Shown in pieces: positions 1-17,199 of a stretch of 32,000 bases of DNA (its first letter is position 1; each line of letters starts with the position of its first letter). The translations under genes were made by a program, and so were the position numbers. Location of the stretch: NCBI GenBank assembly GCA_030668875.1, contig DAOVER010000019.1, positions 1 to 32,000 of the forward strand, given 5' to 3'. This stretch comes from Candidatus Heimdallarchaeota archaeon (GTDB lineage Archaea > Asgardarchaeota > Heimdallarchaeia > Heimdallarchaeales > Heimdallarchaeaceae). The notes beneath the pieces are model-generated. The model saw nothing but the letters and a program-made list of their open reading frames with translations, had not been told where the DNA came from and made no database searches.

Positions 1-134
1 CGCCAACATTCCTGCCATTGCGCATCGTGCTGTATGGTTCAAACTTTATTAACTGAGGGACAAGTGTTCAAACACTTGCGAACCATAAATATGGCGAGTT
101 TTCGCCAAGCACTACCCATATATCAGCACTTTCC

Positions 135-142
135 TATATAAA
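135..142 (+). promoter_or_regulatory. TATA-box-like element TATATAAA (reads TTTATATA on the minus strand)
   Basis: Matches the archaeal TATA consensus. On + it would place a start near 165, giving a leader of about 155 nt before the ORF at 321. Confidence 0.45.
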
Positions 143-182
143 CTCGTAGAAAAATGGAAGAAAATTAGAGAGGTATTAACCA

Positions 183-276
183 TCACCACCTCAACATGCA
201 ATGAGGGACAGCTCAGAGACTTCTGGCAAGATTGAATAAGATTTTAATCATCTGTTGCTAACGGTAGGTGAGATAC
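183..276 (+). ncRNA. Candidate structured 5' leader with a kink-turn
   Basis: Helices 183-190/263-271, 205-207/212-214 flanked by tandem GA/GA plus a 3-nt bulge, 225-229/255-259 and 230-236/243-249. Folded by hand only. Confidence 0.35.
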
Positions 277-320
277 TTAGTCGATTCATCGAGAGCTAAA
301 ACTCGTAAAACTAGCGGAAA

Positions 321-1304
321 GTGGACATATTGAAGATCCTTATTACATCTAAGAATGGAGAATTGCTCTATCAGTACGATAGCTTTAGTGAAATCAAAAT
401 TCACGACAATGCTTTAATTACTGGTCTAATCAGCGCAATTGTTGCACTTTCTTCTGAAGTAGTATGTTCTTTCCCACGTGAAATAGAATTTGAGGGTAAA
501 ATTCTCTATTTTTATATAGAAAATGAGTTGATTGTTGCTCTTCTTGTTGATATTGACGCCCCATTTAATGGAGATATTCTTCCAATACTTCTAGCAGAAT
601 TCAAGAAAGTCCAACAGAAGTACAATTTCAGTATTTATCGGGCAATCAAATATGAAGAGGAAGTTTCAACAAGGATAAAAACTGCTCTTGCCAAATATTT
701 GTCCAATATGCAAAAAAATATGCTCACTATCTTTAGGAAAACTGATCTAACTGATTACAAGTCCATGGTGAAGTTGAAAAATGTCGCGCGTGATGTAATG
801 TTTGATGGTTCAAGAGAATTTCTGTCATTTGAAATAATATCTCGTGTTATTCCTGAAGGTTTAGGTAAAGTGCTATATGGTCTAATCGTTGGTCTCCCTG
901 TTATAGTTGTAGGAAATAGAAATCTCGTTGAACCAATGATACATACTTTTCGTCTTCTTTCCCCAACAAGAATACTAAATGTCAAACCATGGTCTTTCAA
1001 ATATGAAATTGGATATGATATTATTGGGACAAATGATTACGCTGAACTTATACCTTCTAGTAATCTGATAATTGTCAATATTGACGAAGGAATTGTTTTT
1101 GGAGGAAACTCATCTGCATATTTTGAAGAATTGGTTAAGCAAGTCTCAAGTCTGAATGCTGTGGAAGCTTTCACCTTTTTAAGAACTGAGTTGGATTGGG
1201 TTTTCCAGTCTCTGGAATCATTATCCATACGAAGTCATTCCAAAGATGTTCTCCCTCTAGAAAAACAAATGATACTTTTTGAATTACTTAAACGTCTTCA
1301 CTAA
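321..1304 (+). CDS. Longin + DENN-like (folliculin-like) domain protein
   Basis: The N-terminal ~125 aa have an Asgard longin pattern (LITSKNGELLY...ALITGLISAIVALSSEV). The C-terminal part (VLYGLIVGLPVIVVG...LLSP...VKPWSFKYEIGYDIIG...IIVNIDEGIV) follows the cDENN pattern and resembles folliculin's C-terminal domain as I recall it. GTG start. Confidence 0.65.
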   Translation: MDILKILITSKNGELLYQYDSFSEIKIHDNALITGLISAIVALSSEVVCSFPREIEFEGKILYFYIENELIVALLVDIDAPFNGDILPILLAEFKKVQQKYNFSIYRAIKYEEEVSTRIKTALAKYLSNMQKNMLTIFRKTDLTDYKSMVKLKNVARDVMFDGSREFLSFEIISRVIPEGLGKVLYGLIVGLPVIVVGNRNLVEPMIHTFRLLSPTRILNVKPWSFKYEIGYDIIGTNDYAELIPSSNLIIVNIDEGIVFGGNSSAYFEELVKQVSSLNAVEAFTFLRTELDWVFQSLESLSIRSHSKDVLPLEKQMILFELLKRLH

Positions 1305-1348
1305 ACATTAGATTTACATATAGTGAAGATTTATAATGTTCTAAACAA

Positions 1349-1687
1349 ATGAGCATTTGTTCCATGAGTTCGTCTGAGCAAAAAAATGAAAAGTCTAGAC
1401 TAGATTGGATAAGATTCAAGAAGCAATCTTTAGTAGGCAAAATAATTTTTGTGAGTACTGTTTGCTTTTTTGGTGTCTTGTTGCTTTTCAACTTCTTTAC
1501 CTTGCTTTACGGTAAATGGGATGATTTAGGGATTTATTCAGTCTGGATTGTCTTTGGATGGTTATTCCTTTCAGTATTGATTTACATCAGTTTTAGGATT
1601 ATTTCAATAGTCATGTCAAAGGGTAGCAAAGAGATTAAAGAACTGGAAAGTTTACCTCCGGAAGAAAAAGATATAGGACAAAAGTGA
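1349..1687 (+). CDS. Small membrane protein, two predicted TM helices
   Basis: Two hydrophobic stretches with charged termini. The stop overlaps the next GTG (GTGA). The start could be 1364. Confidence 0.65.
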   Translation: MSICSMSSSEQKNEKSRLDWIRFKKQSLVGKIIFVSTVCFFGVLLLFNFFTLLYGKWDDLGIYSVWIVFGWLFLSVLIYISFRIISIVMSKGSKEIKELESLPPEEKDIGQK

Positions 1688-2001
1688 TTAATTTGACAAT
1701 GCTGAATGTACCCACTCATCATAGTAAATTCTATTTGATTGTAATTGGATCAATTTATGCATTACTAGTAACTGCAATTATAGTTCTAGCCGCTCTAGCA
1801 AATGACTGGGTTTTCTGGATTTTTGCTTCTTTAACAAACATAGTCATTATAATGATCGGTGTTGTGCGATTCATCAATTTATTGAAACCTAAAATGGTTA
1901 GTTCTCCCTTGGGAAAAACTTTATCATACAGTTCACCACAACTAGAAAAAGAGAATACAGTAGAGAAAACTGAGAGTAATGATGATGGAAAAAACAAATG
2001 A
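1684..2001 (+). CDS. Small membrane protein, two predicted TM helices
   Basis: Two hydrophobic stretches and a charged C-terminal tail. Overlaps both neighbours. Confidence 0.65.
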   Translation: MINLTMLNVPTHHSKFYLIVIGSIYALLVTAIIVLAALANDWVFWIFASLTNIVIIMIGVVRFINLLKPKMVSSPLGKTLSYSSPQLEKENTVEKTESNDDGKNK

Positions 2002-2239
2002 AGCAAGTGTTTTAATGGTATCAACTATCTCGAGTTTTGTAATGTTGGTGGGAGCATTTGGGTTAGTATTTCTACTCGCATTTATTGAATCAATTACGAT
2101 GGATTGGCATCATGCAATTTGGGGTGTTATTTTTATTTCGCTAACATTTGGATTCAGTTTGAGTTATATTTTATGTCAAAAAATTCTTGGACGCATAGAA
2201 AAGAAAAAATCTGAGGAGTTAGAACAAAACAGCTCTTAA
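1979..2239 (+). CDS. Small membrane protein, two predicted TM helices
   Basis: Two hydrophobic stretches and a KKKSEE tail. The start may be 1979, 1982 or 1985. Confidence 0.65.
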   Translation: MMMEKTNEASVLMVSTISSFVMLVGAFGLVFLLAFIESITMDWHHAIWGVIFISLTFGFSLSYILCQKILGRIEKKKSEELEQNSS

Positions 2240-2307
2240 ACCCTCTTCTGTAACGTATTCGAGCAGTCTTACCCATCTTTAAATACTAAACAGAGTATAT
2301 TTTTGTA

Positions 2308-2556
2308 ATGGATACTTCCGACAATATACGGGAAAGTAGAATATTTGAGAAATCTATCCCCTTGATACGTAGATGTATGAAAGAAAAAGTCAGTATTTCC
2401 CTGCTTTTGTCAACACTAAAACTAATGGATATGGGACTGATTAAGGAAGTCGAAGATTTGAACAGTTTTATGGAGAAAAGAATCGAGATAAACCCTAATC
2501 GTTTACATGATGTAGAAAGGATCAAGGGTATGATTCTTAACAACTATTTTGAATGA
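2308..2556 (+). CDS. Hypothetical protein, 82 aa, helical
   Basis: ATG ORF with protein-like composition that fills the gap and converges on the next gene with a 13-nt overlap. Confidence 0.55.
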   Translation: MDTSDNIRESRIFEKSIPLIRRCMKEKVSISLLLSTLKLMDMGLIKEVEDLNSFMEKRIEINPNRLHDVERIKGMILNNYFE

Positions 2557-3923
2557 ACCTTCATTCTCTCATAGAGAACTTTTGCTGCAAAAGCTGCTTC
2601 TCTTGGCGAAAGAAATATAGGCGCTTTCTCTTTCTCAGCATAATCCTTTATCTCTTCAAGTATTGATCCGCTCATGAATACTGGGAAGATGGGTTTTTTT
2701 CTATCAGTCTCATTCCAAGCTCTAATGACTCCTTTGTAATGTTCATCTGGTTTCATCTCCAAAAACGTAGGAATAACACAACATGGAACAACAATGTCGA
2801 TATTAGGATCCTCTAACATTGCTTTGGTCACTTGATAATACCCTTCTCCATTTGCTCCAGCTATCATGTCGAGTGGGTTAACTTTCTTTACTAATGAAAT
2901 CACGTGGGGGTCAATTTTTTGTATAAACTCCTCAGAGAATTCAGTAAGTTCTAATCCCATTTCTTCAGAGTGATCACTGAACAGAACAGCTGACCCTCCC
3001 GAATTAGTTAGCACACCAATTTTTCCTCCTTGAGGTTCAGGTAGGAAAGAGAATGCCTTTATTGCTGTAATATAATCACCAAAGCTTTCACACAAAGTAG
3101 CACCAGCTTGTTTAACAGCGGTTTTAAGAGAGTTATAATCGGTTGCGATTGCTCCTGTATGACTGCTAGCGCTTTTCATCCCTGCAGCTGTTCTACCTCC
3201 TTTAAGAACTACTGTTGGTTTTTTAGCAGCTACTTCAACAAGTTTATTGTAAAATGCTCTCCCATCGATGACATTTTCTAGATAAACAGAAATTACCTTA
3301 GTATCTTCATCATCAATGAAATACTCGAGTAAATCTGTAAGATTTACATCTATCATGTTTCCTAGATTGGCAAATTTAGAGAAACCCAACCCTTGCCACC
3401 ACAGTTCGTAAAGAATTACCGCTCCCACTGAACCTGATTGCGTTAATATGCTTATGTTACCCTCACTAGGTGCTTGAACGAAGGAAGCATTCATTCCGTA
3501 GTCAACATTTTGAATGCCAACGCAATTGGGACCAATTAACCTCATACCTGCATCCAAACTTTTACATTTAATCTCTTGTTCAATTCTCTTTCCTTCTTCG
3601 TTTAACTCCCCAAAGCCAGCTGTTACAATAATAGCACGTTTAATTTCCTTCTCAATGCATTGATCAATAACAATCGGAACAGCTTTGGAAGGTACTAAGA
3701 TAATGGCGAGATCGATTTCTTTCTCAACCTCCAAGACAGATTTGTAGCATTTTAAGCCAAAAATCTCTGTAGCCTTAGGGTTGATTGGATAAATTTCTGC
3801 TTTTAATTTCTCATTTTCCAACAGATTTGCAGTTACTGCATTACCAAATTTCTTAGGGTCGCTAGTAGCTCCAACAATTGCTATGGATTTAGGATAAAAG
3901 AATTGATGAACCATATCACTCAA
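2544..3923 (-). CDS. acdA: Acetate/acyl-CoA ligase (ADP-forming), alpha subunit
   Basis: PKSIAIVGAT CoA-binding start, GFGE, LIGPNCVG, SQSG-like TQSG, LGNMIDV, phospho-His motif SHTGA, NPLD. The start may be the ATG at 3914. Confidence 0.9.
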   Translation of the reverse strand: MSDMVHQFFYPKSIAIVGATSDPKKFGNAVTANLLENEKLKAEIYPINPKATEIFGLKCYKSVLEVEKEIDLAIILVPSKAVPIVIDQCIEKEIKRAIIVTAGFGELNEEGKRIEQEIKCKSLDAGMRLIGPNCVGIQNVDYGMNASFVQAPSEGNISILTQSGSVGAVILYELWWQGLGFSKFANLGNMIDVNLTDLLEYFIDDEDTKVISVYLENVIDGRAFYNKLVEVAAKKPTVVLKGGRTAAGMKSASSHTGAIATDYNSLKTAVKQAGATLCESFGDYITAIKAFSFLPEPQGGKIGVLTNSGGSAVLFSDHSEEMGLELTEFSEEFIQKIDPHVISLVKKVNPLDMIAGANGEGYYQVTKAMLEDPNIDIVVPCCVIPTFLEMKPDEHYKGVIRAWNETDRKKPIFPVFMSGSILEEIKDYAEKEKAPIFLSPREAAFAAKVLYERMKVHSK

Positions 3924-3979
3924 TTAGAAGATATTACTTAACTTTTATGTTTTTCTCTTCCATCTGAAATAGAAGATAC

Positions 3980-4936
3980 TCATTTGAATCCTTTTTGTAT
4001 AATGTATTCAGATAAGTCAATGTTCAATACTTGAACTACCACACTTTCTAAAATACTAAACTCTTCCATGGGTTTTACAAACTCGTTTAGCACATCAATC
4101 TTTCTTCTAGCTTCTTGCTGGCTCTCATTTTTGGCAATAATCATAGAGTAGATGTACTGACTATCAGTTTTTATTATGTATTGATAATCTCCAGAAACCA
4201 TGTATTGTAACATTCCCGTTTTTCCAAATATCCTTTTACTAAAACTTTCAATAGCTGCTAGAAATCCTGCTAACAACGATGGGTCTTCCTCAAGTCCAAT
4301 TTTGTCAATCTCAAGTAAAGGAAACCCATCAATATCTGCAATCATAAACATAAGTGGATCGATTTTTCTTTTTGTAGCAAGTTTTGCAGTGTTATTCTTT
4401 AACCAATTCAAAGCGTTGTCGACGTTTTCACCAGTTTTCATACTGGTTTTGAAGAATTGAAAGGAAGCATTTTCTTTCTCTGCTAAATTGAAAAGATTCA
4501 GGTGATTGATAACAGATTCTAGGTCTTGACTTTCTTTTAAATCTGCTTTATTACATAAAAATAAGATTAAGAATTCATCACGATCGTCTTTAAGATTTAT
4601 AATTCGCCAAAATTCCTCTTTAGCTTCGTCAAAACTATCTGGATCAGCTGAATCTATCATGAATACTAGACCATAAGCTAACTTTACGTATGATTCCCAA
4701 ATTGTTTTACGATAAGATATGTGCCCTCCAAGATCGAAAATATCAACTCTTGCATCTCCTATTTCTGTTGTCTCGAATTGCAAACCCATTGTAGGTCTTG
4801 TTTCTTCGAATTCTCCAGTCATTATTCGCTTCAAGAAAGAAGATTTTCCTGCTTGTGATAACCCTATTATAACTAACGGGATGCCCTTTTCATCGAATTT
4901 CATCTCAGTAGTCATTTTTTTCATCTTATCTAACAA
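3980..4936 (-). CDS. Arf/Sar1-like small GTPase fused to a C-terminal longin/roadblock-like domain
   Basis: G1 GLSQAGKSS, G2 PTMG, G3 DLGGH, G4 NKAD, G5 TSMK. The C-terminal ~125 aa carry DPSLLAGFLAAIESFSKRIF, typical of Asgard longin-like domains. Confidence 0.9.
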   Translation of the reverse strand: MLDKMKKMTTEMKFDEKGIPLVIIGLSQAGKSSFLKRIMTGEFEETRPTMGLQFETTEIGDARVDIFDLGGHISYRKTIWESYVKLAYGLVFMIDSADPDSFDEAKEEFWRIINLKDDRDEFLILFLCNKADLKESQDLESVINHLNLFNLAEKENASFQFFKTSMKTGENVDNALNWLKNNTAKLATKRKIDPLMFMIADIDGFPLLEIDKIGLEEDPSLLAGFLAAIESFSKRIFGKTGMLQYMVSGDYQYIIKTDSQYIYSMIIAKNESQQEARRKIDVLNEFVKPMEEFSILESVVVQVLNIDLSEYIIQKGFK

Positions 4937-5335
4937 CTTCCCTTTCAGACAAGCTTTTATTTCTATTGATAGTGCTCGTCAGTACAAAATAAACTTTTCT
5001 TAATTTGCAATTGACTTATTCTTCAGTATGAACCGAAAATTCAGTGAGGAAAAACTAAAACAAAGGCTTTATTAATATTTTACATGTTTTGTTATATATC
5101 TAATTAATAGAAAGAAACTAAAGAAAGCTATCTTGTATAAAATGAATGGTGTTAAGTTAAATAATAATGTGAAGTGTGTTCAGAAAAAATACACCCACAT
5201 CTAGAAATTTATTGAATTATTGTATCTTTTATCTCTATTAATTGTATTCATTTTTGTCGGTATTTACACAGCGCAAGTTTTGAGGAAAGAAATATATACA
5301 ACATTTCACAATGGTATGATATACTCACTGAAAAG

Positions 5336-8095
5336 GTGTGTAAGAATATGAATAGACGGAATTTAATGAAAACAACATTCATTATTCTACTTTTGACACT
5401 TTCTATGATTGGGGGTTCTAATCAAGCTGCTCAAGCTCTAAATTACACTCAAGACCCCTCAAATGAAGAAGTGCAGCAAGTAGCAACTGAACCGGCACAA
5501 GATCAAATAGGATTGCAAGATACAGAAGATACAATTGAAATCTGGATTGTACAAGATTTTGTGATAACGGTATATGATTTGGCATTGATGGAATGTCATG
5601 TGCTAAATCTTTATGGAATTGAAATTGAAGCGGATATAGAAGTATGGATTCAATATGACAATGGTAGTGTTTTCCTCATCTATCAAGAATCAAGAATACT
5701 GTTTCCTTACTTGGAATATATCTTTAATGTAACACATGCTTTCACATCAGTAGGTTTCCATTTAGTTAATCTCAAAGTAATGGATATAACAAATAACCAG
5801 GAAGTTACAACAGAGTGCCAATGGGAAGTTATTGATGGTTATGTAGAACTAGCTGTTATTCAAGACTACGAAGCTCAAGTCGGAATAGAGGTTAAGATGG
5901 AATTTTATATCTATAATGGATATGCAATAGCAAGGGAATATTTCATTGAAGTATTTCTTGATGATGGTTCGGGTCCAGTACTGATACATAATGAAACAAC
6001 GATTATCGCAGCATATGATGTACTAATGGTAGTAATTTACTGGACCTTTCTTGTCGCAGGACATCATGATGTAATTCTAAGAGTTACTGATGTACCTGAA
6101 ACATATGAATGGTTTGCTTATTGCTATTGGGAAGTTTATGATGGGTTCATAGACATATTAATTGAGCAAAACTATGAAGCTTGGATTGGCGTTGAGGAAA
6201 GGATACAGTTCTGGGTTTACAACTACTATGCTATCGATATTACTGCTGATATTTCTGTTTGGATTGACAACGGAACACATACTTATCAGATATATTCTAG
6301 AAAGGATGTAGTAATAAATACTGGCACATACTTCATGGATGAAGTCTTCTATATATTCATCTATGAAGGATTCTGGGATCTCTATGTAGAAGTTTATGTG
6401 ATAGATTTTGATGTTACGTGGATAGAATTTTGTCCAGAAGGATGGTATGTTTATGGCGGTTTCATAAATGTTTGGATCTACCAACAGTACGAAATTTTCG
6501 TTCTTGAAGAAGCTATGATGTATTGTTGGGTCATGAGCAATTATGCTGTTGATCGCGATATAGCTATTGAATTGTGGATAGTTAATGCAACGCATGACAT
6601 CTTGATATATGGAGAAACTACAGTTATTGCTTCAGGAGAAGTGTATAACTTCACGGTATTTTGGACGTTCCTCTATGTGGATTATTGGGATGTAAAACTA
6701 GTTGTTATTGATCTATTCTCAGGTGAGATATATGTTGACTACTGTTATTGGTATGTTTATGGAGGATACTTTGATCTTTATATTTACCAAGAATACTATG
6801 GATTGCTATATGAAGAACTCTGGATGTCATTTGAGATATATAATTTCTACGCAGTAGAGAAAACTGTAGAAATTGAAATACTCATTTTCGATGGAGTAAA
6901 TTATGTTCAAGTGTATTATGCTGTGGATAATATCTTATCACTTACAGGTTACTTCTTGGAACTTTGGTACATATTTGAAGCCGCTGGATACTATGACGTG
7001 ATACTAATTGTAACTGAAGTGGATACGGGACTAGTGTGGATAGAATATTGTTGGTGGTACATATATGCTGAATATCTAGATATATGGATTGTCCAAGATA
7101 TGGAAGCTTCAGTTGGTGAAGAGGTCCTTATGGAATTCTGGATAGTAAACTATTTCTCAGTTGAAATGGATTTGACAGTTGAAGTATGGATAAGTAATGG
7201 AACGCATTCTGAATTAGCTTATACTGATATAACGGTGATAATTGCAGCTAATGGAATTTACACATTCACATTGCCTTATACATTCTTATACGCTGGATTT
7301 TACACCATAACCTTAATTGTAATAGATGCAACAGGTGCTCAATGGTTTGAATACTGTCGATGGGATATCTATGATGGATTCATTGATGTCTGGATAATTC
7401 AAGACTATGAAGCTATTGTAGGGCAAGAAGTATGGATGGTATTCTACGCACAGAGTTACTATAGTTATGATGTACCCATCTACGTAGAAGTAAGAATAGA
7501 CATGGGTTACGGAATTGTCATACTTTATTCAAACACCTTGGTTTTGCTAGCTGGTCAATTACTAACGTGGAACCTTAGTTATATATTCTTGGACCCAGGA
7601 ATATTCCAAATCTACTTTGTAGTTGTTGAATTACAAACTGGCATTGTTTGGGTTGCAGAATGTCGCTGGTACATCCATGATGATGGCTGGTTAGATATAT
7701 GGATTGAACAAGGATACTATGGAGAAGTAGGAGTAAACTATACTATGCAATTTGGTGTAGGAAATCTATTCTCAATAGATAAGAATCTGAATCTTGTAGT
7801 AAAAATAGTCCAAGGAAGTGACTCTTGGATAGTGCATAATGAAACGAAATTGGTACTATCGATGACAACTTATGATTTCTATGTCTATTGGGTATTCGTG
7901 AACGAAGGTTGGTACGATGTTTACTTCATAGTTACTGATGTCGTCACTGGAATCGTTAAAATAGTGGATTGCTGGTGGAAGATTGAGGAACCCGTTATAC
8001 CTGAATTCAGTTTCATAACTCTATTGCCAATTCTAGGAGCTCTTTCTGCAGCAATCTATTTAGTATTTAGAAGGAAAAGGAAACTAACTCACTAA
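5336..8095 (+). CDS. Secreted surface protein: 8 tandem ~102-aa beta-rich (Ig-like) repeats and a PEF-CTERM-like sorting signal
   Basis: N-terminal signal peptide (start probably 5348 or 5366). Repeats begin (I/L)D(I/V)WIxQxY and end CxW. The C-terminus is IPEF + TM helix + RRKRK. Confidence 0.85.
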   Translation: MCKNMNRRNLMKTTFIILLLTLSMIGGSNQAAQALNYTQDPSNEEVQQVATEPAQDQIGLQDTEDTIEIWIVQDFVITVYDLALMECHVLNLYGIEIEADIEVWIQYDNGSVFLIYQESRILFPYLEYIFNVTHAFTSVGFHLVNLKVMDITNNQEVTTECQWEVIDGYVELAVIQDYEAQVGIEVKMEFYIYNGYAIAREYFIEVFLDDGSGPVLIHNETTIIAAYDVLMVVIYWTFLVAGHHDVILRVTDVPETYEWFAYCYWEVYDGFIDILIEQNYEAWIGVEERIQFWVYNYYAIDITADISVWIDNGTHTYQIYSRKDVVINTGTYFMDEVFYIFIYEGFWDLYVEVYVIDFDVTWIEFCPEGWYVYGGFINVWIYQQYEIFVLEEAMMYCWVMSNYAVDRDIAIELWIVNATHDILIYGETTVIASGEVYNFTVFWTFLYVDYWDVKLVVIDLFSGEIYVDYCYWYVYGGYFDLYIYQEYYGLLYEELWMSFEIYNFYAVEKTVEIEILIFDGVNYVQVYYAVDNILSLTGYFLELWYIFEAAGYYDVILIVTEVDTGLVWIEYCWWYIYAEYLDIWIVQDMEASVGEEVLMEFWIVNYFSVEMDLTVEVWISNGTHSELAYTDITVIIAANGIYTFTLPYTFLYAGFYTITLIVIDATGAQWFEYCRWDIYDGFIDVWIIQDYEAIVGQEVWMVFYAQSYYSYDVPIYVEVRIDMGYGIVILYSNTLVLLAGQLLTWNLSYIFLDPGIFQIYFVVVELQTGIVWVAECRWYIHDDGWLDIWIEQGYYGEVGVNYTMQFGVGNLFSIDKNLNLVVKIVQGSDSWIVHNETKLVLSMTTYDFYVYWVFVNEGWYDVYFIVTDVVTGIVKIVDCWWKIEEPVIPEFSFITLLPILGALSAAIYLVFRRKRKLTH
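5534..7990 (+). repeat. Eight protein-level tandem repeats of ~102 aa
   Basis: Aligned by eye from the translation. Divergent at DNA level. Confidence 0.85.
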
Positions 8096-8121
8096 TCTTT
8101 TTTCTTTTTTCTTTTTTCTTA
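8096..8121 (+). terminator. T-rich archaeal-type terminator
   Basis: Several oligo-T tracts directly after the stop codon. Confidence 0.55.
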
Positions 8122-8199
8122 TCTATAATTTCTAATGACAATGCAATAAATTTTTAAAATTCATTTTTCGTTTGATTCTATCCTATATGGTGAACTAAA

Positions 8200-9156
8200 A
8201 TGAAAAAATATTTAGTAACAGGCTCTTATGGGCAAATCGGTCAAGCATTAATTCCCGCCATGCTTAAGAGATATGGGAAGGAAAATGTTATTGCTACAGG
8301 AAGGAAGAAACCTATTCAATTATTCAAAGACTTAGACGTTAATTACAAAAGATTAGACGTGAGAGATCAGTTTGGTTTAAGATCACTAATCGTTGAAAAT
8401 GATATAGATATCATCATTCACAATGCTTCTGTTTTATCTGCAACGGGAGAGAAAAATCCCCAGTTAGCTCATTCAATTAACTTCGAAGGTTTCTATAATG
8501 TTCTAGAAGCATCTAGAGAATTGAAGATTGAACAATTATTTGCTCCTTCTTCTATAGCAGCTTTTGGTCCTACAACTCCTTTGGTAAATACTCCTAATAC
8601 GACTATAATGGAACCGACAAGTATATACGGAATATCTAAGGTTTATGTTGAATTAATGGGTAATTATTATAATTTGAAATATGGATTGAACTTCAGAGCA
8701 CTGCGTTATCCTGGTGTCTTAAGCCCTGAAGAACCTGGAGGTGGAACGACAGATTATGCAATTTGGATCTTCTATGAAGCGCTCAAAAATATGAAGTACA
8801 CTTGTTTCTTAAGTGCAGGCATTAGATTACCTATGATGATGATGTCAGATTGCTTAAAATCAACCTTCGACTTGTTAGAAGCCGATGATTCCAAGCTCAA
8901 ACATCGATCATTTAATGTTACAGGAATGAGTTTCACTCCAGAAGAACTAGCAGATGAAATAAAGAAATACTTACCTGATTTCCAAATCGATTATGAACCC
9001 GATTTCCGCGACGCAATCGCTCGTTCTTGGCCTCAATCGCTTGATGATAGTGTTGCAAGAGAGGAATGGGGTTGGGAACCTGAGTTGCCTTTTGAGAAAA
9101 TGGTTCCAGCTATGTTAGATGGTGTTAGTGAGAGAATTGGTATTTCTTATAAGTGA
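8200..9156 (+). CDS. Extended SDR, L-threonine 3-dehydrogenase-like
   Basis: TGSYGQIG Rossmann motif, HNASVLSATGE, PSSIAAFG, YGISK (YxxxK), RYPG, PGGGTTDYA, typical of SDR-type threonine dehydrogenases. Confidence 0.8.
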   Translation: MKKYLVTGSYGQIGQALIPAMLKRYGKENVIATGRKKPIQLFKDLDVNYKRLDVRDQFGLRSLIVENDIDIIIHNASVLSATGEKNPQLAHSINFEGFYNVLEASRELKIEQLFAPSSIAAFGPTTPLVNTPNTTIMEPTSIYGISKVYVELMGNYYNLKYGLNFRALRYPGVLSPEEPGGGTTDYAIWIFYEALKNMKYTCFLSAGIRLPMMMMSDCLKSTFDLLEADDSKLKHRSFNVTGMSFTPEELADEIKKYLPDFQIDYEPDFRDAIARSWPQSLDDSVAREEWGWEPELPFEKMVPAMLDGVSERIGISYK

Positions 9157-9406
9157 TGCTTTTTTCCTTTTCTTCTTTTATTGCTTTTTCTGAATTTCAA
9201 CAATTTTAGGATAATAAACCAACTTAACAGAAGTTGAAAGGGATGTGGTTCTCTAACATAAATCTTTTTAGAAAAAACAGTTTTAATATCCCAAAGAATA
9301 AATGAAACAGTTTCCCAAATTCTACTAAATCAGAACTTTTCTTATACTTGAAAAGTCAGGTGAAATATGTTTGTTGATATAAGAGATTGAAGTATGGAGT
9401 GATATA

Positions 9407-9658
9407 ATGAAAAAACATGACCTAGTTGCACCATGTGGTGATTATTGTAGTGGTTGTGGACAGTATAACGGACTAATTATTCAAATAGCCAAACTGATGA
9501 AGGAACTTGCAGATCTCTATGGATTTGAATTCCGTTCTAAAGGAGTATTTGATTTCAAGGAATTTGTAAAGGGACTAGACTGGTTTGTCAATAATGCAAA
9601 ATGTCCTGGTTGTCAACAAGAATATTTTTCACAGTTGTTCCTTTGGAAACTTCCATAA
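9407..9658 (+). pseudogene. Truncated DUF3795-like Cys-rich protein
   Basis: PCGDYCSGC and CPGC motifs, RBS-like GGAGTGA upstream. The expected later Cys motifs are missing, and the sequence after 9613 is the antisense strand of the next gene. Confidence 0.6.
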
Positions 9659-9731
9659 TTGTTTCTTCTCCTAATTGAGCATTGGGAAGATATTTTCTTA
9701 AAAAAGCATATGATTTTATTCGAATTTTCAA
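9614..9731 (-). pseudogene. N-terminal fragment of a MoaD/ThiS ubiquitin-like protein
   Basis: (M)KIRIKSYAFLRKYLP...GEETIMEVSKGTTVKNIL matches MoaD N-termini (TTG at 9731). The C-terminal half with the GG motif is absent. Confidence 0.6.
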
Positions 9732-9777
9732 TATGTCCACTTCTATGTTACTTTTTTCATGATTTGATATATTCTTC

Positions 9778-10107
9778 TCAAAAGTAATTAACTTCATTAT
9801 CTTTTGATTTACTCGTTATAAACCCATGACCCTTCATATGTTGACCTCCACAGAGCAAATACATGCCAGCTTCGAAGAGGGCTATTCTTGCACCTTTTGG
9901 AATTATCATTTGATGTTGCATTATAGGATTAAAATTAATGAAAATTTCACCAATTTCATCAAAACTCAGATTCAACCGTTTTTCGACTAAATCCGCTAGT
10001 GTTTCACCTTCTTTCCATGCAATTTTTATAGTTGAATCATCTGTTGGACCAGAATTATCAGCTAGTTTTCTCAGTCTGCCGTACAAATGAATTTCTATTT
10101 CTGACAT
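9778..10107 (-). CDS. MoaD/ThiS-like beta-grasp protein with a C-terminal extension
   Basis: IEIHLYGRLR...EGETLADLV...IFINF...GARIALF pattern, directly downstream of AOR. The GG is internal (LLCGGQH). Confidence 0.75.
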   Translation of the reverse strand: MSEIEIHLYGRLRKLADNSGPTDDSTIKIAWKEGETLADLVEKRLNLSFDEIGEIFINFNPIMQHQMIIPKGARIALFEAGMYLLCGGQHMKGHGFITSKSKDNEVNYF

Positions 10108-10269
10108 TGAATCATCACTTCTGTGTTATTTCCATTAGGGTAGTATTTTAAGGTATATAATTTTTATATTTCACAAGTTCTAAAAATGAAATATTAAAGC
10201 AAGTACAAGTAAGAAAAAAAGAAGAAACACAAGTATTTAAGAAAATAAAATAGAAGAGATTTATCTCTC

Positions 10270-12048
10270 CTAAATATTTTGATAGACAGCATCAAGTTCT
10301 TCATCAGAAACATCAAAAGTTACATCATGAGGTAATAATTTCTCGTCTCTAAAGAATTGTGGTAATCTATCATCCTCTTTAGTAAATCCAGCTTTTTTAT
10401 TAAACTCTTTTTCAATTTTAATGATTTTGGTTCCGACTTCAGTGATGTCATAACTATCTTTACCTAAGAAACCAGCTACTGTTTCTTCTAATCCTTCCAT
10501 TCCTTCTGCTATATCTAGAATTGCAAAGGCAATGAAGAGACAATAACCTGATTGATCTACATAGGCTGTTGTAGATTGGAACGCTCTACTTAGGTCTGCC
10601 TTTTTAGGCCCACGAGGATCGTCTCCACCAGCACTTCCAAGAATTTCAGGAGCGATTGTATATCCCGCAGTATGGTCTGCTCCCATTGCTGTAGTTGCAT
10701 AAGTCACTCCTATTCCTCTTATGGGTCGTGGATCATATGCTGGTAAAGCTTGATTTTTCACAACTGGAACACGATCGACACCCCATGTATCTGCAGCAAA
10801 CTTAGTTCCTTGCATGAAAACTTTTCCATCTTTATCATTGGAATCATAACATTTTTTCAGAAACTTAATTGCTACTTCACCATCACCCCAAGGAATTTTA
10901 CCTGAGTCCATAGCCATAGCAAGTGTATTCCCTGCTTCAATGGTATCCAAACCTAAATCATTGCATATACGATTCAATTTAGCTACATGTTCAAGGTTAT
11001 CAATGGTACAATTTGTACCTAAAGCCCATGCAGTTTCATATTCAAGAGGAGAGACAATAGCTTTTCCAGTTTCTTTGTCAGGTACAACATTGCTGCATTG
11101 TATTATACAACCAGGATGACATGGATGACCATATTTACCTTCTGCTTTATCACCAAATTTCTCATTAGTTTCATCTACAAGAGCATGAACAGCCTCACCA
11201 GAAATATTTTTAGCTCCCTCAAAATATCCTGATCTGAAGTTCTTTGTTGGTAAAGCACCAGCTTCATTGATTATATTCATAAGCACATTTGTTCCATAAT
11301 TCTTAAGAGCACCCTTATCGGTACCTGCTTTTCCACCAGTAACTGCATGTTCTTGAAGAGCAGAGATCATCTTTTTACGTCCTTTATCAAACAATTCCTC
11401 GTTTTTAGGCTTTGGACGTTCACCACCTGTGTCATCAGAAATCACAGCAATAATCCTTTTAGAGCCAAGAACAGCACCTAAACCACCACGACCAGCGTAT
11501 CTTCCTGGATCAGTATTTTCAATATTATTACCAAAAATCCCTGCATTCTTAGATAACCTTTGTCCTGCAATACCGGCACCACATAACCCTGCATTAGGGT
11601 ATTTGTCACCTAATTTTTCTATAAGTTCATATAAACCCATGTCAAAATATTCATTAGCTTTTATGAATTCGACTTTATTTTTAGATATATAGAGGTGGTA
11701 CCAATCATTATGTTGAGGTTTTCCTTCAATAATAACAGCTCGAAGACCTAATCTTGCTAATCTGGTTCCAGTCAATCCTCCTGCATTAGCTTCTTTTATA
11801 CCCCCAGTTAATGGGCTTTTTCCTCCAACAGACATCCTCCCTGAAGATGGGGCAGAAGTTCCTGTTAAAATACCTGGTGCAATAACAATTTTGTTTTCAG
11901 GACCAAGTGGATCAGATTTTGGATCTACTTCATCAGTTACAATTGTACTAGTTAATCCTCTCCCACCAAGCAACTTATATTTTTCAGGAATATCTTCCAA
12001 TTTATAGCTCATATCAGTTACATTTACTCGTAATATTTTATTTTCCAT
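10270..12048 (-). CDS. aor: Aldehyde:ferredoxin oxidoreductase (tungstopterin, AOR family)
   Basis: LLGGRGL, KSPLTGGIKEANAGG, AGRGGLGAVLGSK, CHPGCIIQC, EYET, CNDLGLDTI, DPR, GADHT. Confidence 0.93.
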   Translation of the reverse strand: MENKILRVNVTDMSYKLEDIPEKYKLLGGRGLTSTIVTDEVDPKSDPLGPENKIVIAPGILTGTSAPSSGRMSVGGKSPLTGGIKEANAGGLTGTRLARLGLRAVIIEGKPQHNDWYHLYISKNKVEFIKANEYFDMGLYELIEKLGDKYPNAGLCGAGIAGQRLSKNAGIFGNNIENTDPGRYAGRGGLGAVLGSKRIIAVISDDTGGERPKPKNEELFDKGRKKMISALQEHAVTGGKAGTDKGALKNYGTNVLMNIINEAGALPTKNFRSGYFEGAKNISGEAVHALVDETNEKFGDKAEGKYGHPCHPGCIIQCSNVVPDKETGKAIVSPLEYETAWALGTNCTIDNLEHVAKLNRICNDLGLDTIEAGNTLAMAMDSGKIPWGDGEVAIKFLKKCYDSNDKDGKVFMQGTKFAADTWGVDRVPVVKNQALPAYDPRPIRGIGVTYATTAMGADHTAGYTIAPEILGSAGGDDPRGPKKADLSRAFQSTTAYVDQSGYCLFIAFAILDIAEGMEGLEETVAGFLGKDSYDITEVGTKIIKIEKEFNKKAGFTKEDDRLPQFFRDEKLLPHDVTFDVSDEELDAVYQNI

Positions 12049-12091
12049 TATAACACCTATTACTAGTTATATTATTAATAACATAAACATT

Positions 12092-12380
12092 ATGTGAAAA
12101 AGTTAAAAAAATATCTTTTATAAATTTCTTTAAGAGATTTTGTATCCCTTTTCTCCATTATTCAATCAGAAATAATAAAGTTGGAAATATAATAAGTTTT
12201 GCTACTCCCAGTATTCGTTATCTGTATAGTCAGATATTACTCCTATTGATTCTGGTCTAAGATGTGATAAAACTGATCCTCCACCTTGAACTATTTCAAT
12301 TTCCATTTCAAGGTATTTCTTTTTAATAAGTTCTGCCATATTTTTGAATAATCAAGTCTGCTTCCATGACGATTGTTATA
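12092..12380 (-). repeat. Direct repeat copy B: degV 3'-end fragment plus ~110 bp of downstream sequence
   Basis: Aligns with 13786-14067 over its length and with degV 19455-19634 in the coding part. Confidence 0.9.
12202..12380 (-). pseudogene. degV 3' fragment, frameshifted
   Basis: Translates to ...NMAELIKKKYLEMEIEIVQGGGSVLSHLRPESIGVISDYTDNEYWE*. It has two 1-nt deletions relative to degV near 12345 and 12367. Confidence 0.88.
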
Positions 12381-12485
12381 CCCTTAGCTCAAACCGTTCT
12401 GTTTTTCTATAGTTGTTTAGAAATTTATTTAAACTAATTCAAAACTTCTTTCAATGGTAATATTTCCAGAAATGAAGCTGTTAAT

Positions 12486-13454
12486 ATGAGTGAATCTAAA
12501 ATCAAAATTGTTGAAGTAATAGATAAAATTGGTCAAGCTAAATGTTGTATGTCTCTAAGAAACATCATGATTTTAGCGATTCTTGCTGGTGTTTATATTG
12601 GTTTTGGGGGGGTATTGTCGATTATTGTAACTCATGATATGCCTGCAAATTTTGGTGTTGGTTTTACACAACTAATTTCTGGTATAGTTTTCTCAGTAGG
12701 ACTGATGTTAGTCGTTTTAGGTGGTGCTGAACTTTTTACAGGAAATAATCTACTAATTATACCTTGCATGGATCGAAAAATAACTCCGTTTCACTTAATT
12801 AAGAACCTTTCAGTGGTTTATATTGGTAATTTTGTTGGTTCTCTTTTATTAGTTGCCATTTTTGTAGGAACAGGAATCTGGAAAAACAATAATTATCTTG
12901 TAGGTGCAAGTTCATTAATAACTGCAAATAGTAAGGTAAATCTCACATTTTTAGAAGCATTTTGTAGAGGAATATTATGTAATTGGTTAGTTTGCTTAGC
13001 TATTTGGATATCTACATCTGCTAAAACAGTAATTGGTAAAATTTTTAGTGTTTTATTCCCAATTATGGCTTTCGTTTCAAGTGGTTTTGAACACTCAATT
13101 GCAAATATGTTTTTCATTCCTTTAGGACTATGGCTGAAAAATTACGATTCAATTGTTTCTGCAGCAGGCTCTCCTGATTTATCGAACCTTACTTGGGGAA
13201 ATTTTTTCTATGGAAATCTTCTTCCTGTTACACTTGGCAATATCTTAGGCGGATTGATATTTGTGGGTTTTCTTTATTGGTTTGTTTATAGAACAAAAGA
13301 CACAATTTGTGGAAGTAGTGATATTCAAAATGGTGAAAAAGATTTGTCTTCCGTAAAAAATAAATCTCAATCTATACCTAATCATATTAGTATAAAAATC
13401 CACAATAACATAAAAAAACGTAAAAACAGTGAGAAATACAAGAAAAAGAATTAA
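12486..13454 (+). CDS. Formate/nitrite transporter (FNT family)
   Basis: LAGVYIGFG, GAELFTGN, YIGNFVG, RGILCNWLVCLA, GFEHSIANMF, VTLGNILGG. It ends in a Lys/Asn-rich tail. Confidence 0.93.
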   Translation: MSESKIKIVEVIDKIGQAKCCMSLRNIMILAILAGVYIGFGGVLSIIVTHDMPANFGVGFTQLISGIVFSVGLMLVVLGGAELFTGNNLLIIPCMDRKITPFHLIKNLSVVYIGNFVGSLLLVAIFVGTGIWKNNNYLVGASSLITANSKVNLTFLEAFCRGILCNWLVCLAIWISTSAKTVIGKIFSVLFPIMAFVSSGFEHSIANMFFIPLGLWLKNYDSIVSAAGSPDLSNLTWGNFFYGNLLPVTLGNILGGLIFVGFLYWFVYRTKDTICGSSDIQNGEKDLSSVKNKSQSIPNHISIKIHNNIKKRKNSEKYKKKN

Positions 13455-13479
13455 AAAATAATTTGTGGTTAGATTCCTC

Positions 13480-13743
13480 ATGGTAGAGATAGTCGCGTTT
13501 TATGCAACACATTGGTGTTCAGCATGTAAAAGATTGGGGAATTTTCTTGAAGATCTTGGAGTAGATGTTAACTGGATTGATATAGATAAAGACAAAGAAG
13601 CTTCAGAAATAGTAATTGAATTAAATAATGGAAAAAGAATTATTCCTACAATAGTTTTTTCCGATGAAACTTTTTTGACAAATCCTGACAAGAACCTAGT
13701 TCTTCATAAGCTAGGTTCGAGTATGTATGATGTGCAACAGTAA
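13480..13743 (+). CDS. Glutaredoxin/NrdH/mycoredoxin-like protein
   Basis: WCSAC (CxxC), DIDKD, GKRIIPTIVF cis-Pro motif. The ATG at 13480 is preferred over the GTG at 13465. Confidence 0.85.
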   Translation: MVEIVAFYATHWCSACKRLGNFLEDLGVDVNWIDIDKDKEASEIVIELNNGKRIIPTIVFSDETFLTNPDKNLVLHKLGSSMYDVQQ

Positions 13744-13785
13744 ATTTATAGATTTGTCCACAGTTATTCATCGTTAGAATACATC

Positions 13786-14067
13786 ATGTGTAAAGGTCAA
13801 AAAATATTTTTTTAAATTTCTTTAAGAGATTTTATATCCTTTTTCTCTATTATTCAATCAGAAATAATAAAGTACAAAATCTAATAAGTTTTGCTACTCC
13901 CAGTATTCATCATCTGTATAGTCAGATATTACGCCAATTGATTCTGGACCAAGATGAGATAAAATTGATCCTCCACTTTGAACTATCTCGATTTCCATGT
14001 TAGGATATTTTTACTTGATAATTGCAGCAATATCGTTAGCATATTCCAAATTGCTTCCGTATAGCAA
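13786..14067 (-). repeat. Direct repeat copy C: degV 3'-end fragment plus ~110 bp of downstream sequence
   Basis: Aligns with 12092-12380. Confidence 0.9.
13894..14067 (-). pseudogene. degV 3' fragment with an in-frame stop
   Basis: LLYGSNLEYANDIAAIIK*KYPNMEIEIVQSGGSILSHLGPESIGVISDYTDDEYWE*. TAA at 14011-14013 lies where degV has GAA. Confidence 0.88.
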
Positions 14068-14277
14068 AATTTCAAATACCAAGGAGTCTGCTCATTGGTT
14101 TTCGTCTTAATCCAAAGTATAAACACTGGTGGTTGTTATAGGTTCCAACATATGAAATGGTGAGATTACATTCAATTATATCCCAAATAATAAGGAATAA
14201 GGCCATATGTAAGCGGAACAGTAGAAAGAAATGCTTTCATCGCAATAAATATATAGAAATAACATACAAAGAACTAG

Positions 14278-15309: not shown

Positions 15310-15424
15310 TTTTATCCCTTCTTAATATCAATTTACTTATAAAAAAAATAAAAGATGATCAGTTATTCTTTAATACTCTTCTTATTCTACTGATCGTTTG
15401 GTTATTCGTTTAAAGCTTGTTTTT

Positions 15425-15450
15425 AAAGATTCAAAAGTTCTTTTAATCTT
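15425..15450 (-). terminator. Hairpin downstream of the radical SAM gene
   Basis: AAAGATT-C-AAAAG-TT-CTTTT-AATCTTT inverted repeat. Confidence 0.35.
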
Positions 15451-15470
15451 TATTCTTAATTTGAAAAACA

Positions 15471-16994: not shown

Positions 16995-17199
16995 TCACTA
17001 TTTTTAAATATGTCTTGAAATAATTATATTATAAGAGAAAACTATAAATTCAATTGAAATTTAGAATTAAGTTAGTCATCAAACTGTAGAAAAAGGGTAT
17101 ATCCCTATACTAAGAAGTATATTTGGACATATTCCTAATGGACTTCGTTAAGATACAAAAATGTTCAATTGCACAAAATCATACATTGGAGAACTGATC

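Follow-up and report, generated by a model that had tools for sequence, protein, structure and literature searches.

Folliculin-FNIP and SMCR8-C9orf72 are longin-DENN complexes that act as GAPs on RagC/D and Arf (PDB 6nzd, 8dhb, 7mge). The Ragulator anchor is lipidated LAMTOR1, not a two-transmembrane (two-TM) hairpin protein, and SR-beta shows that an Arf-like GTPase can bind a longin domain (SRX of SR-alpha). Some Heimdallarchaea encode proteins with the exact FLCN domain organization (Liu et al., bioRxiv 10.1101/2020.10.19.343400; Nature 2021), and an Asgard operon combining a LAMTOR1-like roadblock protein, a Rab-like GTPase and a DENN protein has been described (bioRxiv 10.1101/2020.10.19.343400). 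Asgard fusions of a G domain to a longin or roadblock domain are Rag-like by architecture and Arf-like by sequence (Liu et al. 2020; Tran et al. 2024, PMC10933270). Neither kind of protein considered here is new to the Asgard literature (Liu et al. 2020; Tran et al. 2024); an operon that includes tiny membrane proteins is the part that looks undescribed.

The window is the 32,000-nucleotide stretch of DNA that was analyzed. An ORF check recovered all the ORFs named in a preliminary description and bore out its layout of two convergent longin genes separated by four small ORFs and an acdA gene. The longin-DENN and GTPase-longin genes lie 2.7 kb apart on opposite strands. With confidence a little above even, the locus as a whole is best explained as two neighboring transcription units, A (321-2556, + strand) and B (4936-2544, - strand), which do not demonstrably form one machine. 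That the longin-DENN and GTPase-longin proteins are direct partners seems rather unlikely.

The longin-DENN protein

The 327-aa product of the first gene (321-1304, + strand) had been called a longin-DENN protein from raw sequence, and rightly so: its AlphaFold2 model has a mean pLDDT of 84.7, and its best Foldseek match is FLCN (6nzd_H, E 4.9e-7), with FNIP2, DENND10, C9orf72/SMCR8 and DENND1 among the other leading matches. In the model, the longin region (nt 321-632, residues ~1-104) shows a ββ-α-βββ-α-α fold over residues 4-101 and is followed by a long helix (residues 105-141) and a DENN-like α/β domain (nt 774-1301, residues 152-327). VIA-align superposed the longin half on synbindin (Z 14.0) and the DENN half on DENND10 (Z 14.1, 3.0 Å, 161 residues) and on the FLCN C-terminal domain (3v42_B, Z 12.8); the whole chain aligned with FLCN over 289 residues (Z 13.7). 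A Pfam search with the protein itself gave no match reaching threshold. Folliculin_C is matched by 7 of 53 relatives, and relatives also match Folliculin and SMCR8_C. As modeled, this is a minimal protein of folliculin/DENND architecture. It shares the N-terminal longin and C-terminal DENN α/β domain of Folliculin-FNIP and SMCR8-C9orf72, its best whole-chain structural matches; it differs from these complexes in that no gene for a second longin-DENN subunit lies nearby.

The folliculin label given to this protein thus holds for its build but not for the GAP signature. Unlike folliculin, it is only 327 aa long, and its β1-β2 and β4-β5 loops read N-G-E and E-N-E, both conserved; neither the GP motif nor the β4-β5 arginine finger was found by alignment and secondary structure, a comparison distinct from superposition of the catalytic site. 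Two paralogues (L043 and L049) carry G-P and K-L-R-G-G-Q-R at the corresponding loops, and L043 passes the Pfam Folliculin model (23.8 vs 23.3 bits). Because the GP motif and loop arginine of its own GP/Arg-bearing paralogues are missing from the longin-DENN protein, an arginine-finger GAP role is improbable for it; in lacking both features it is closer to the non-catalytic partners FNIP and C9orf72 or to the DENN GEFs than to FLCN.

The small genes of unit A

The longin-DENN gene is followed on the + strand by TM1 (1349-1687, 112 aa), TM2 (1684-2001, 105 aa) and TM3 (1979-2239, 86 aa). Hydropathy gives two hydrophobic helices in each product, in agreement with the earlier call of three small two-TM proteins. 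The last gene, S82 (2308-2556, + strand, 82 aa), encodes an orphan and ends within acdA, the two 3' ends overlapping by 13 nt. Spacing along the unit is 44, -4, -23 and 68 nt, the negative values being the overlaps of TM2 with TM1 and of TM3 with TM2. The ATG at 1364 is the probable start of TM1, given the MSS... N-terminus of its orthologues and a TTTATAA box at 1331-1337. The TM1 product carries F-[RK]-K-Q-S-L-x-G-K as a conserved juxtamembrane motif, along with a second motif, W..G.YS.W.LFGW; TM2 has a conserved K-P-x-x-V-S-x-P-L motif after the second helix, predicted to be cytosolic. S82, kept at 36-90% identity, had no match in Pfam, PDB or Atlas and is soluble and probably helical. An antisense ORF (2286-2543) was considered as the gene at this position and set aside, the + strand S82 frame being better conserved.

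Across genera, TM1 is found beside the longin-DENN gene at 28 of 30 loci, TM2 at 26, TM3 at 20 and S82 at 25. Genus g3 (G004, 91% complete) lacks both the longin-DENN orthologue and the 82-aa gene. Small gaps and overlaps, joint occurrence across the 30 loci and this joint absence indicate that unit A behaves as a unit, its five genes being gained, kept and lost together. Downstream of the GP/Arg-type longin-DENN paralogues there are no such mini membrane genes, so that an association with membrane proteins is seen in a single orthogroup. Co-transcription of the two-TM genes, as proposed in the preliminary description, fits the close + strand spacing, but the TATA-like box in front of TM1 could mean that they are transcribed separately from the longin-DENN gene.

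The hairpin proteins may expose their short conserved cytosolic tails as docking sites that hold the soluble longin-DENN protein at the cell membrane. Its target there would be a small GTPase, which it would serve either as an exchange factor or as a non-catalytic platform subunit of the FNIP/C9orf72/DENND kind. The idea of small membrane-anchoring subunits recalls Ragulator, although no homology was found between the Ragulator anchor and the two-TM proteins. As in the published Asgard DENN operon, a DENN-fold protein is encoded near a small GTPase; however, the GTPase here is Arf/Sar-like with a longin of its own, on the other strand and 2.7 kb off, a stand-alone roadblock gene is absent, and downstream of the DENN gene come three two-TM genes and then an orphan.

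The GTPase-longin fusion

The gene at 3980-4936 precedes acdA on the - strand and encodes a GTPase-longin fusion, as had been claimed. Its G domain (nt 4382-4936, residues 1-185) matches Pfam Arf over residues 6-182 (1.9e-35, 122.3 bits) and contains a GLSQAGKS P-loop, the switch I Thr, a Sar1/SR-beta-type FDLGGH switch II and NKAD; H68 does not vary in A2 and reaches at least 90% conservation in A4. The best match in a PDB profile search was the Asgard protein HodArfR1 (8oul, 4.7e-34), followed by Arf1 and Arl1, and VIA-align gave Z 18.1 for Arf6 and 16.6 for both Sar1 and SR-beta. Of the proto Rag/Arf label, then, the Arf half stands, the G domain being Arf/Sar-like; the protein is not Rag-like and gave no Gtr1_RagA Pfam match. 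It shares with eukaryotic Rag/Gtr a G domain followed by a roadblock/longin-superfamily platform but differs in matching Arf and ArfR best by sequence and in having a C-terminal domain of the longin, not the roadblock, type.

This C-terminal domain (nt 3980-4381, residues 186-318 plus the stop codon) was identified through orthologues: the C-terminal 133 aa of three of them pass the Fuz_longin_1 gathering score (27.1, 26.3 and 31.0 vs 26.1), and that of one also passes Robl_LC7. An hhalign comparison pairs it, in register, with the longin domain in the 321-1304 product (E 1.3e-3). It has a conserved, MON1/Fuzzy-like G-F-P before strand 2 and is modeled by AF2 as α-βββ-α-α with the first hairpin at low confidence. 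Like Sar1 and SR-beta, the protein has an Arf-family fold with histidine for glutamine after DxxG; its short, polar N-terminus lacks the amphipathic helix of Sar1 and, unlike SR-beta, it has no TM anchor. Its Arf-like switch I and the longin fused in cis set it apart from both. The order of G domain and longin/roadblock-superfamily domain in one chain is that of the Asgard Rag/Arf-like fusions (e.g. LokiRagO 8yl2), of which this genome encodes about 10; this one differs in its Heimdallarchaeaceae-only orthogroup, FDLGGH switch II and MON1/Fuzzy-type G-x-P longin. Unit B supplies an Arf-family GTPase with a Sar1-type switch II histidine and no N-terminal membrane helix, whose longin-type domain should provide a dimerization or platform module. 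This GTPase is the nearest candidate client of unit A.

Relationship between the two units

In all 20 genomes carrying both genes on one contig (Heimdallarchaeaceae, four genera), the longin-DENN and GTPase genes are convergent and 2.5-3.2 kb apart. The synteny is conserved, but no more strongly than elsewhere: control regions compared between these genera show collinear runs of 4-12 genes, and radical-SAM, acdA, epimerase, IMPDH, MBL-fold, Fe-S and DUF72 genes belong to the conserved block as well. As control regions and unrelated genes are equally collinear, the synteny is at background level and does not discriminate. The possibility of chance clustering, raised at the outset, is supported by numbers: with 35 small-GTPase genes (10 of them at 300-336 aa) and four longin-DENN paralogues in 3.23 Mb, at least one such neighbor pair is expected with p ~0.07-0.29, and proximity within this one genome is not beyond chance.

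These figures bear on whether the units form a single membrane-tethered switch, in which the longins heterodimerize, the hairpins provide a Ragulator-like anchor for the assembly and the DENN protein sets the nucleotide state of the GTPase. This proposal of the preliminary description is not established and appears doubtful. Besides background collinearity, opposite strands and the intervening acdA, it has to contend with G004, which keeps GTPase-acdA-epimerase without longin-DENN or S82, and with the paralogues: the three other longin-DENN genes of this genome have no GTPase neighbor, the closest GTPase-longin paralogues have no DENN neighbor, and the pairing does not recur among the nearest paralogues of either gene, which thus give no independent replication. 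What speaks for a switch is that insertions never fall between the two genes in the 20 genomes but do occur just outside them; that both orthogroups are specific to one family, f1 (27/29 genomes each), in which both gene families arose; that the two longins are homologues and share a non-GAP type; and that the GTPase itself lacks a membrane anchor and is a singleton, unlike several paralogous GTPase-longin genes, which sit as adjacent pairs. DENN/small-GTPase linkage is, moreover, known in Asgard archaea (bioRxiv 10.1101/2020.10.19.343400) and was also observed here: in another Heimdall family, f7, DENN-like genes directly adjoin small-GTPase genes in the published arrangement, a DENN protein of 504-576 aa being encoded next to and convergent with a 220-230 aa Ras/Rab-like GTPase.

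Alternatively, the proximity is a frozen accident of a very stable gene order, with the longin-DENN unit serving at least one of the 34 remaining small GTPases while the GTPase-longin has other partners, such as itself (homodimer) or a paralogue. This is a serious contender, if one held at somewhat below even confidence. The collinear control regions, the unrelated genes within the block, the chance estimate and G004 all agree with it, as does the finding that Asgard GTPase genes generally lie outside the operons of their longin/roadblock genes (Tran et al. 2024, PMC10933270). It accounts less readily for the failure of rearrangements to separate the two genes in any of the 20 judgeable genomes, and for the facts that the DENN class acts on small GTPases and that DENN genes adjoin these in other Asgard lineages.

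It is quite improbable that the meaningful pair is instead GTPase-longin and acdA, with the GTPase, for example, reporting on or controlling acyl-CoA/energy metabolism and the longin-DENN unit incidental. To our knowledge, no biochemical link connects Arf-like GTPases to ADP-forming acyl-CoA synthetases. In addition, acdA does not neighbor the closest GTPase-longin paralogues, an AT-rich intergenic stretch could carry a separate acdA promoter, and background synteny is high. The acdA gene (2544-3923, - strand) encodes a 459-aa α subunit-like protein of NDP-forming acyl-CoA synthetase with Succ_CoA_lig and CoA_binding domains. It may be specialized, being one of three paralogues in the genome and scoring below the acetate-CoA ligase equivalog cut-off (TIGR02717, 4.4e-130, 434 vs 567 bits). 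Within the two-unit arrangement acdA is context and not an evident part of a switch; yet, lying 56-90 nt downstream on the same strand in 5/5 genera, the only linkage kept in all of them including the rearranged G004, it is the most persistent neighbor of the GTPase gene.

Two convergent gene sets at the start of the contig

The window begins at base 1 of contig C47 (DAOVER010000019.1) of a 3.23-Mb, 92%-complete genome, and the ORF listing contains every gene named in the preliminary description, at the same coordinates. On the plus strand, the gene for a longin-DENN protein (321-1304, 327 aa) is followed by three genes for two-helix membrane proteins, TM1 (1349-1687, 112 aa), TM2 (1684-2001, 105 aa) and TM3 (1979-2239, 86 aa), and by the gene for an orphan protein, S82 (2308-2556, 82 aa), with successive gaps or overlaps of 44, -4, -23 and 68 nt. 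On the minus strand, acdA (2544-3923, 459 aa), encoding an acyl-CoA synthetase alpha subunit, lies 56 nt 3' of the GTPase-longin gene (3980-4936, 318 aa). The stretch would comprise two transcription units, A (321-2556) and B (4936-2544). An antisense ORF at 2286-2543, less conserved than S82, is probably spurious, and an Rfam scan of positions 1-9500 yielded no match at E <= 1. A radical-SAM gene that flanks longin-DENN in all other genomes is found here at the end of contig C50 (12351-13433 of 14,400 bp), suggesting that C50 and C47 are probably neighbours in the genome. A search for sequencing runs turned up no RNA; it returned four DNA runs, all from a single marine-sediment study from which this DNA may derive.

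TM1, TM2 and TM3 each contain two hydrophobic helices with basic flanks, from which both ends of all three proteins should face the cytoplasm. They evolve fast (30-50% identity inside a genus) and keep membrane-adjacent motifs: F-[RK]-K-Q-S-L-x-G-K and W..G.YS.W.LFGW in TM1, K-P-x-x-V-S-x-P-L in TM2. Beside the longin-DENN gene, TM1 is found in 28 of 30 loci, TM2 in 26, TM3 in 20 and S82 in 25. Paralogy among the three membrane proteins was considered and not claimed, the hhalign E values (0.019, 9.5e-4 and 0.029) being too weak. The four small ORFs, that is, the three two-TM proteins and the one orphan, carry no roadblock or longin signal. S82 is conserved across orthologues; a search with 15 of them gave no meaningful Pfam match, and the protein has no Atlas match and no PDB profile match at E <= 10. 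An operon with such tiny membrane proteins is apparently an undescribed element. Upstream of the second ATG of TM1 (position 1364), at a distance of about 27 nt, stands a TTTATAA box (region 1331-1364), and orthologues start at the equivalent MSS..., suggesting that TM1-3 may have a promoter of their own and a leaderless transcript.

Fold and loop signatures of the longin-DENN protein

The longin-DENN protein itself matches no Pfam (E <= 1) or NCBIfam family. When 1.84 billion representatives were searched with a profile, 106 relatives emerged, the majority sharing the C-terminal half only and some full length. The AlphaFold2 model built from a 53-sequence alignment (mean pLDDT 84.7) shows a bb-a-bbb-a-a longin domain at residues 4-101 (E4-10, E15-20, H30-44, E53-57, E60-67, E70-77, H84-101), after which come a long helix and, from 152 to 327, an alpha/beta domain. 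In VIA-align comparisons the N-terminal half scores Z 11-14 against longin domains (synbindin, Z 14.0), and the C-terminal half aligns as a DENN alpha/beta domain with DENND10 (Z 14.1; 3.0 A, 161 residues), with the C-terminal domain of FLCN (3v42_B, Z 12.8; 3.5 A, 164 aa) and with DENND1A (Z 10.5); against the whole FLCN chain the score is Z 13.7 over 289 residues. Foldseek placed FLCN (6nzd_H, 4.9e-7) at the top of the PDB matches, with FNIP2, DENND10, C9orf72, SMCR8 and DENND1A/B after it; the DENND1A/B matches (3.9e-6 to 5.9e-5) extend over the whole chain and so cover the longin(uDENN)-cDENN-dDENN fold. A PDB profile search retrieved a "Longin domain" entry (8yqg) and SMCR8. Seven of the 53 relatives match Pfam Folliculin_C and others match Folliculin, Fuz_longin_1, Longin or C9orf72-like; the gathering scores of Folliculin and Folliculin_C are reached by distant relatives only and not by the window protein. 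These fold and profile matches bear out the preliminary designation of the gene as "DENN-longin".

The catalytic arginine finger of folliculin-type longins sits in the b4-b5 loop (R164 in FLCN, R78 in NPRL2). In a 2025 study (PMC12290439), the signature of FLCN, SMCR8, C9orf72 and NPRL2 is defined as a GP motif preceding longin strand 2 plus an arginine finger, and the study reports the signature in a class of Heimdall longins as well. Neither element is present in the longin-DENN protein. Across 24 orthologues the b1-b2 loop (K-N-G-E-L-L) has an invariant G13 followed by E or Q, never by P, and the b4-b5 hairpin, located by alignment and not by superposition, reads E-N-E/D with zero basic residues. 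Two paralogues from another Heimdall family (L043 and L049) have G-P and K-L-R-G-G-Q-R at the equivalent loops, and one of the G-P-bearing paralogues passes the Pfam Folliculin threshold. Three longin-DENN paralogues are encoded elsewhere in the window's own genome, including a 387-aa protein on contig C74 with K-S-K-R-S in the b4-b5 loop. Five paralogues of the GP/Arg type have no mini membrane genes downstream. From the missing GP motif and loop arginine, the window protein would not be a GAP longin of the folliculin type; it seems closer to FNIP and C9orf72, the partners without catalytic function, or to DENN exchange factors than to FLCN.

The GTPase-longin protein and acdA

Residues 6-182 of the GTPase-longin protein match Pfam Arf (PF00025) with an E value of 1.9e-35 (122.3 bits against a gathering score of 22.3), followed by weaker G-domain matches to Ras (60 bits), SRPRB and Roc. 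The G domain is Arf/Sar-like and not Rag-like, Gtr1_RagA (PF04670) being absent from the Pfam matches at E <= 1. The best PDB profile match of the G domain is the Asgard ArfR (8oul, 4.7e-34), then Arf1 and Arl1; structurally, it matches Arf6 (Z 18.1) as well as Sar1 and SR-beta (both Z 16.6). In the alignment the P-loop is intact and the switch I threonine and NKAD are present. Switch II lacks the Arf-type W-D-x-G-G-Q with its catalytic Gln and reads F-D-L-G-G-H, which is the Sar1/SR-beta variant; all of 19 orthologues share H68, and in a set of 34 its conservation is at least 90%. Inspection of the sequence revealed no N-terminal amphipathic (myristoylated) helix: about 12 polar, variable residues precede the conserved K-F-D-x-K-G-I-P, a short N-terminus that points to a GTPase without an Arf-like membrane helix.

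The last 133 residues of the window protein have no significant Pfam match. The C-terminal domain of three orthologues passes the Fuz_longin_1 gathering score, and one of the three also passes Robl_LC7 (24.9 against 23). In hhalign the domain is in register with the longin of the longin-DENN protein (E 1.3e-3), and a conserved G-F-P precedes its strand 2, as in the MON1/Fuzzy longins. An Atlas search with the domain gave leads below 0.9 only, one of them a Roadblock/LAMTOR2 cluster. The first AlphaFold2 model of the protein was poor (pLDDT 60.4), so that the longin assignment rests on the orthologue Pfam matches and hhalign rather than on a fold search. The domain belongs to the longin/roadblock superfamily, its modelled first hairpin being of low confidence, and the protein joins a small GTPase and a longin/roadblock domain in one polypeptide, as do the GTPase-longin fusions already described as an Asgard class (Liu et al. 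2020; Tran et al. 2024, PMC10933270).

The genome contains 35 small-GTPase ORFs, ten of them of 300-336 aa; the window gene is a singleton, several other GTPase-longin genes sitting in adjacent pairs. Locus L063 (G029:C15:28000-46000) holds five small-GTPase genes in 10 kb, one of which is a paralogue 45% identical to the window GTPase-longin. The product of acdA falls short of the cut-off of the acetate-CoA ligase equivalog model, which therefore does not fix its substrate. Two more acdA-like paralogues (34-35% identity) are found in the same genome, at C33:29187-30569 and C95:15696-17045.

Conserved gene order and the proposed pairing of regulator and GTPase

Full-length orthologues of longin-DENN occur in 27 of 29 Heimdallarchaeaceae genomes and in that family only; elsewhere in the class the DENN half alone matches, in paralogues. 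Orthologues of the GTPase-longin (E < 1e-120) are likewise confined to the family. Close homologues of both proteins carry the labels Candidatus Heimdallarchaeaceae or Heimdallarchaeota, and both closed genomes of Candidatus Heimdallarchaeum hold orthologues of the locus proteins. In all 20 genomes with both genes on one contig, spanning four genera (g1, g2, g4 and g5), the two are convergent and 2.5-3.2 kb apart. The block kept collinear exceeds the proposed module, running from radical-SAM (-) through longin-DENN, the TM genes and S82 (+) and acdA and the GTPase gene (-) to NAD-epimerase, IMPDH, MBL-fold and Fe-S protein genes (+) and DUF72 (-). Collinearity over 4 to 12 genes also holds for three control regions when genus g5 is set against the window's genome. 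Conserved synteny is therefore the rule in Heimdallarchaeaceae and singles out no functional module: the synteny that the preliminary description proposed as a check is there, but, with control regions collinear as well, it does not serve as evidence for a module. In the one genome of genus g3 (G004, 91% complete, fragmented), the GTPase gene and acdA are followed directly by the epimerase gene, and no longin-DENN orthologue or S82 is found anywhere in the assembly. This suggests that unit A behaves as one unit and that the GTPase can persist without it.

Neighbourhoods of paralogues were also compared. One of the four longin-DENN paralogues in the window's genome has a GTPase neighbour; the probability that one or more such pairs arise there by chance is 0.07-0.29. 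No DENN or acdA gene neighbours any of eight close GTPase-longin paralogues. Among 20 DENN-like paralogues, which are not independent, 7-9 have some small GTPase no more than 8 kb away, where about 18% would be expected; direct adjacency is confined to a known type from another Heimdall family (f7). In four genomes of that family, a DENN-like protein of about 339-576 aa, matched by its DENN half alone, is encoded convergent with and adjacent to a Ras/Rab-like GTPase of 220-230 aa (L051:7720-10096, L052:7679-10104, L053:6366-8719 and L055:6341-8735); a 164-aa orphan ORF follows the GTPase gene at these loci. In G023 (L058:7922-13261, contig G023:C11), two longin-DENN paralogues of about 468 aa stand in tandem, with a 174-aa Arf GTPase (Pfam Arf 8e-41) 1.1 kb upstream; the counterpart pair in the window's genome (C22:8097-13505) has no GTPase on its contig, nor do three distant metagenomic longin-DENN relatives, on short contigs, have a GTPase neighbour.

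DENN-GTPase linkage as a theme is thus real and already published: the f7 arrangement is probably the roadblock/Rab-like/DENN operon predicted by Liu et al. (2020), who also noted that some Heimdallarchaea encode the FLCN domain organisation. The window cluster differs from that operon, in which a Rab-like GTPase gene stands beside the DENN gene together with a stand-alone LAMTOR1-like roadblock gene; here no such roadblock gene is present, and the GTPase is of the Arf type (Arf 122 versus Ras 60 bits), on the opposite strand and 2.7 kb off. The particular pairing seen in the window has no independent replication among the paralogues examined. Complex prediction with full-length GTPase-longin (GTP and Mg) and full-length longin-DENN gave scores of 0.07 and 0.01, the mark being 0.32, and these values count neither for nor against an interaction.

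Asgard archaea encode eukaryote-like small GTPases and longin, roadblock or DENN proteins by the dozen, and gene order is seldom a guide to which regulator serves which GTPase (Tran et al. 2024, PMC10933270). The locus offers a compact set: a folliculin-shaped protein of 327 aa, three hairpin proteins of the membrane and a GTPase that has a longin of its own. Unit A would encode a longin-DENN regulator that is docked on the membrane and acts as an exchange factor or platform, and unit B an Arf/Sar-like GTPase with a longin in cis, encoded together with an acyl-CoA synthetase subunit. The neighbouring GTPase-longin is a candidate client of unit A, although a rather doubtful one. Still less likely is the fuller scheme of a minimal archaeal counterpart of folliculin-Rag-Ragulator, in which the cis longin of the GTPase would pair with the longin of longin-DENN, the three hairpins would hold the pair on the membrane and the DENN protein would set the nucleotide state of the GTPase without an arginine finger. 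A dedicated module is made less probable by the background level of synteny, by the exception in G004 and by the lack of a GAP signature. Should the proteins interact, membrane-docked longin-DENN control of an Arf/Sar-type switch would be older than eukaryotes; should they not, the locus would still be a useful caution against taking conserved proximity for partnership in a family of such high synteny.

The collinear block is interrupted twice in the window. A gene for a 919-aa aromatic-rich repeat surface protein (5336-8095, plus strand) lies between the GTPase and epimerase genes, as it does in G023. G010, G002, G006 and G007 lack it at this position and have the GTPase and epimerase genes pointing away from each other across about 170-190 bp; the surface-protein gene is inserted at the block's edge. 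The second insertion, of about 13.5 kb (9400-22900), separates the epimerase gene from IMPDH, the two being adjacent in G006, G007 and G002. The IMP dehydrogenase gene (22964-25744, plus strand) owes its length of 926 aa to an intein that includes a LAGLIDADG endonuclease (Pfam Intein_splicing, Hint and LAGLIDADG_3); its orthologue in G006 is uninterrupted and 478 aa long.
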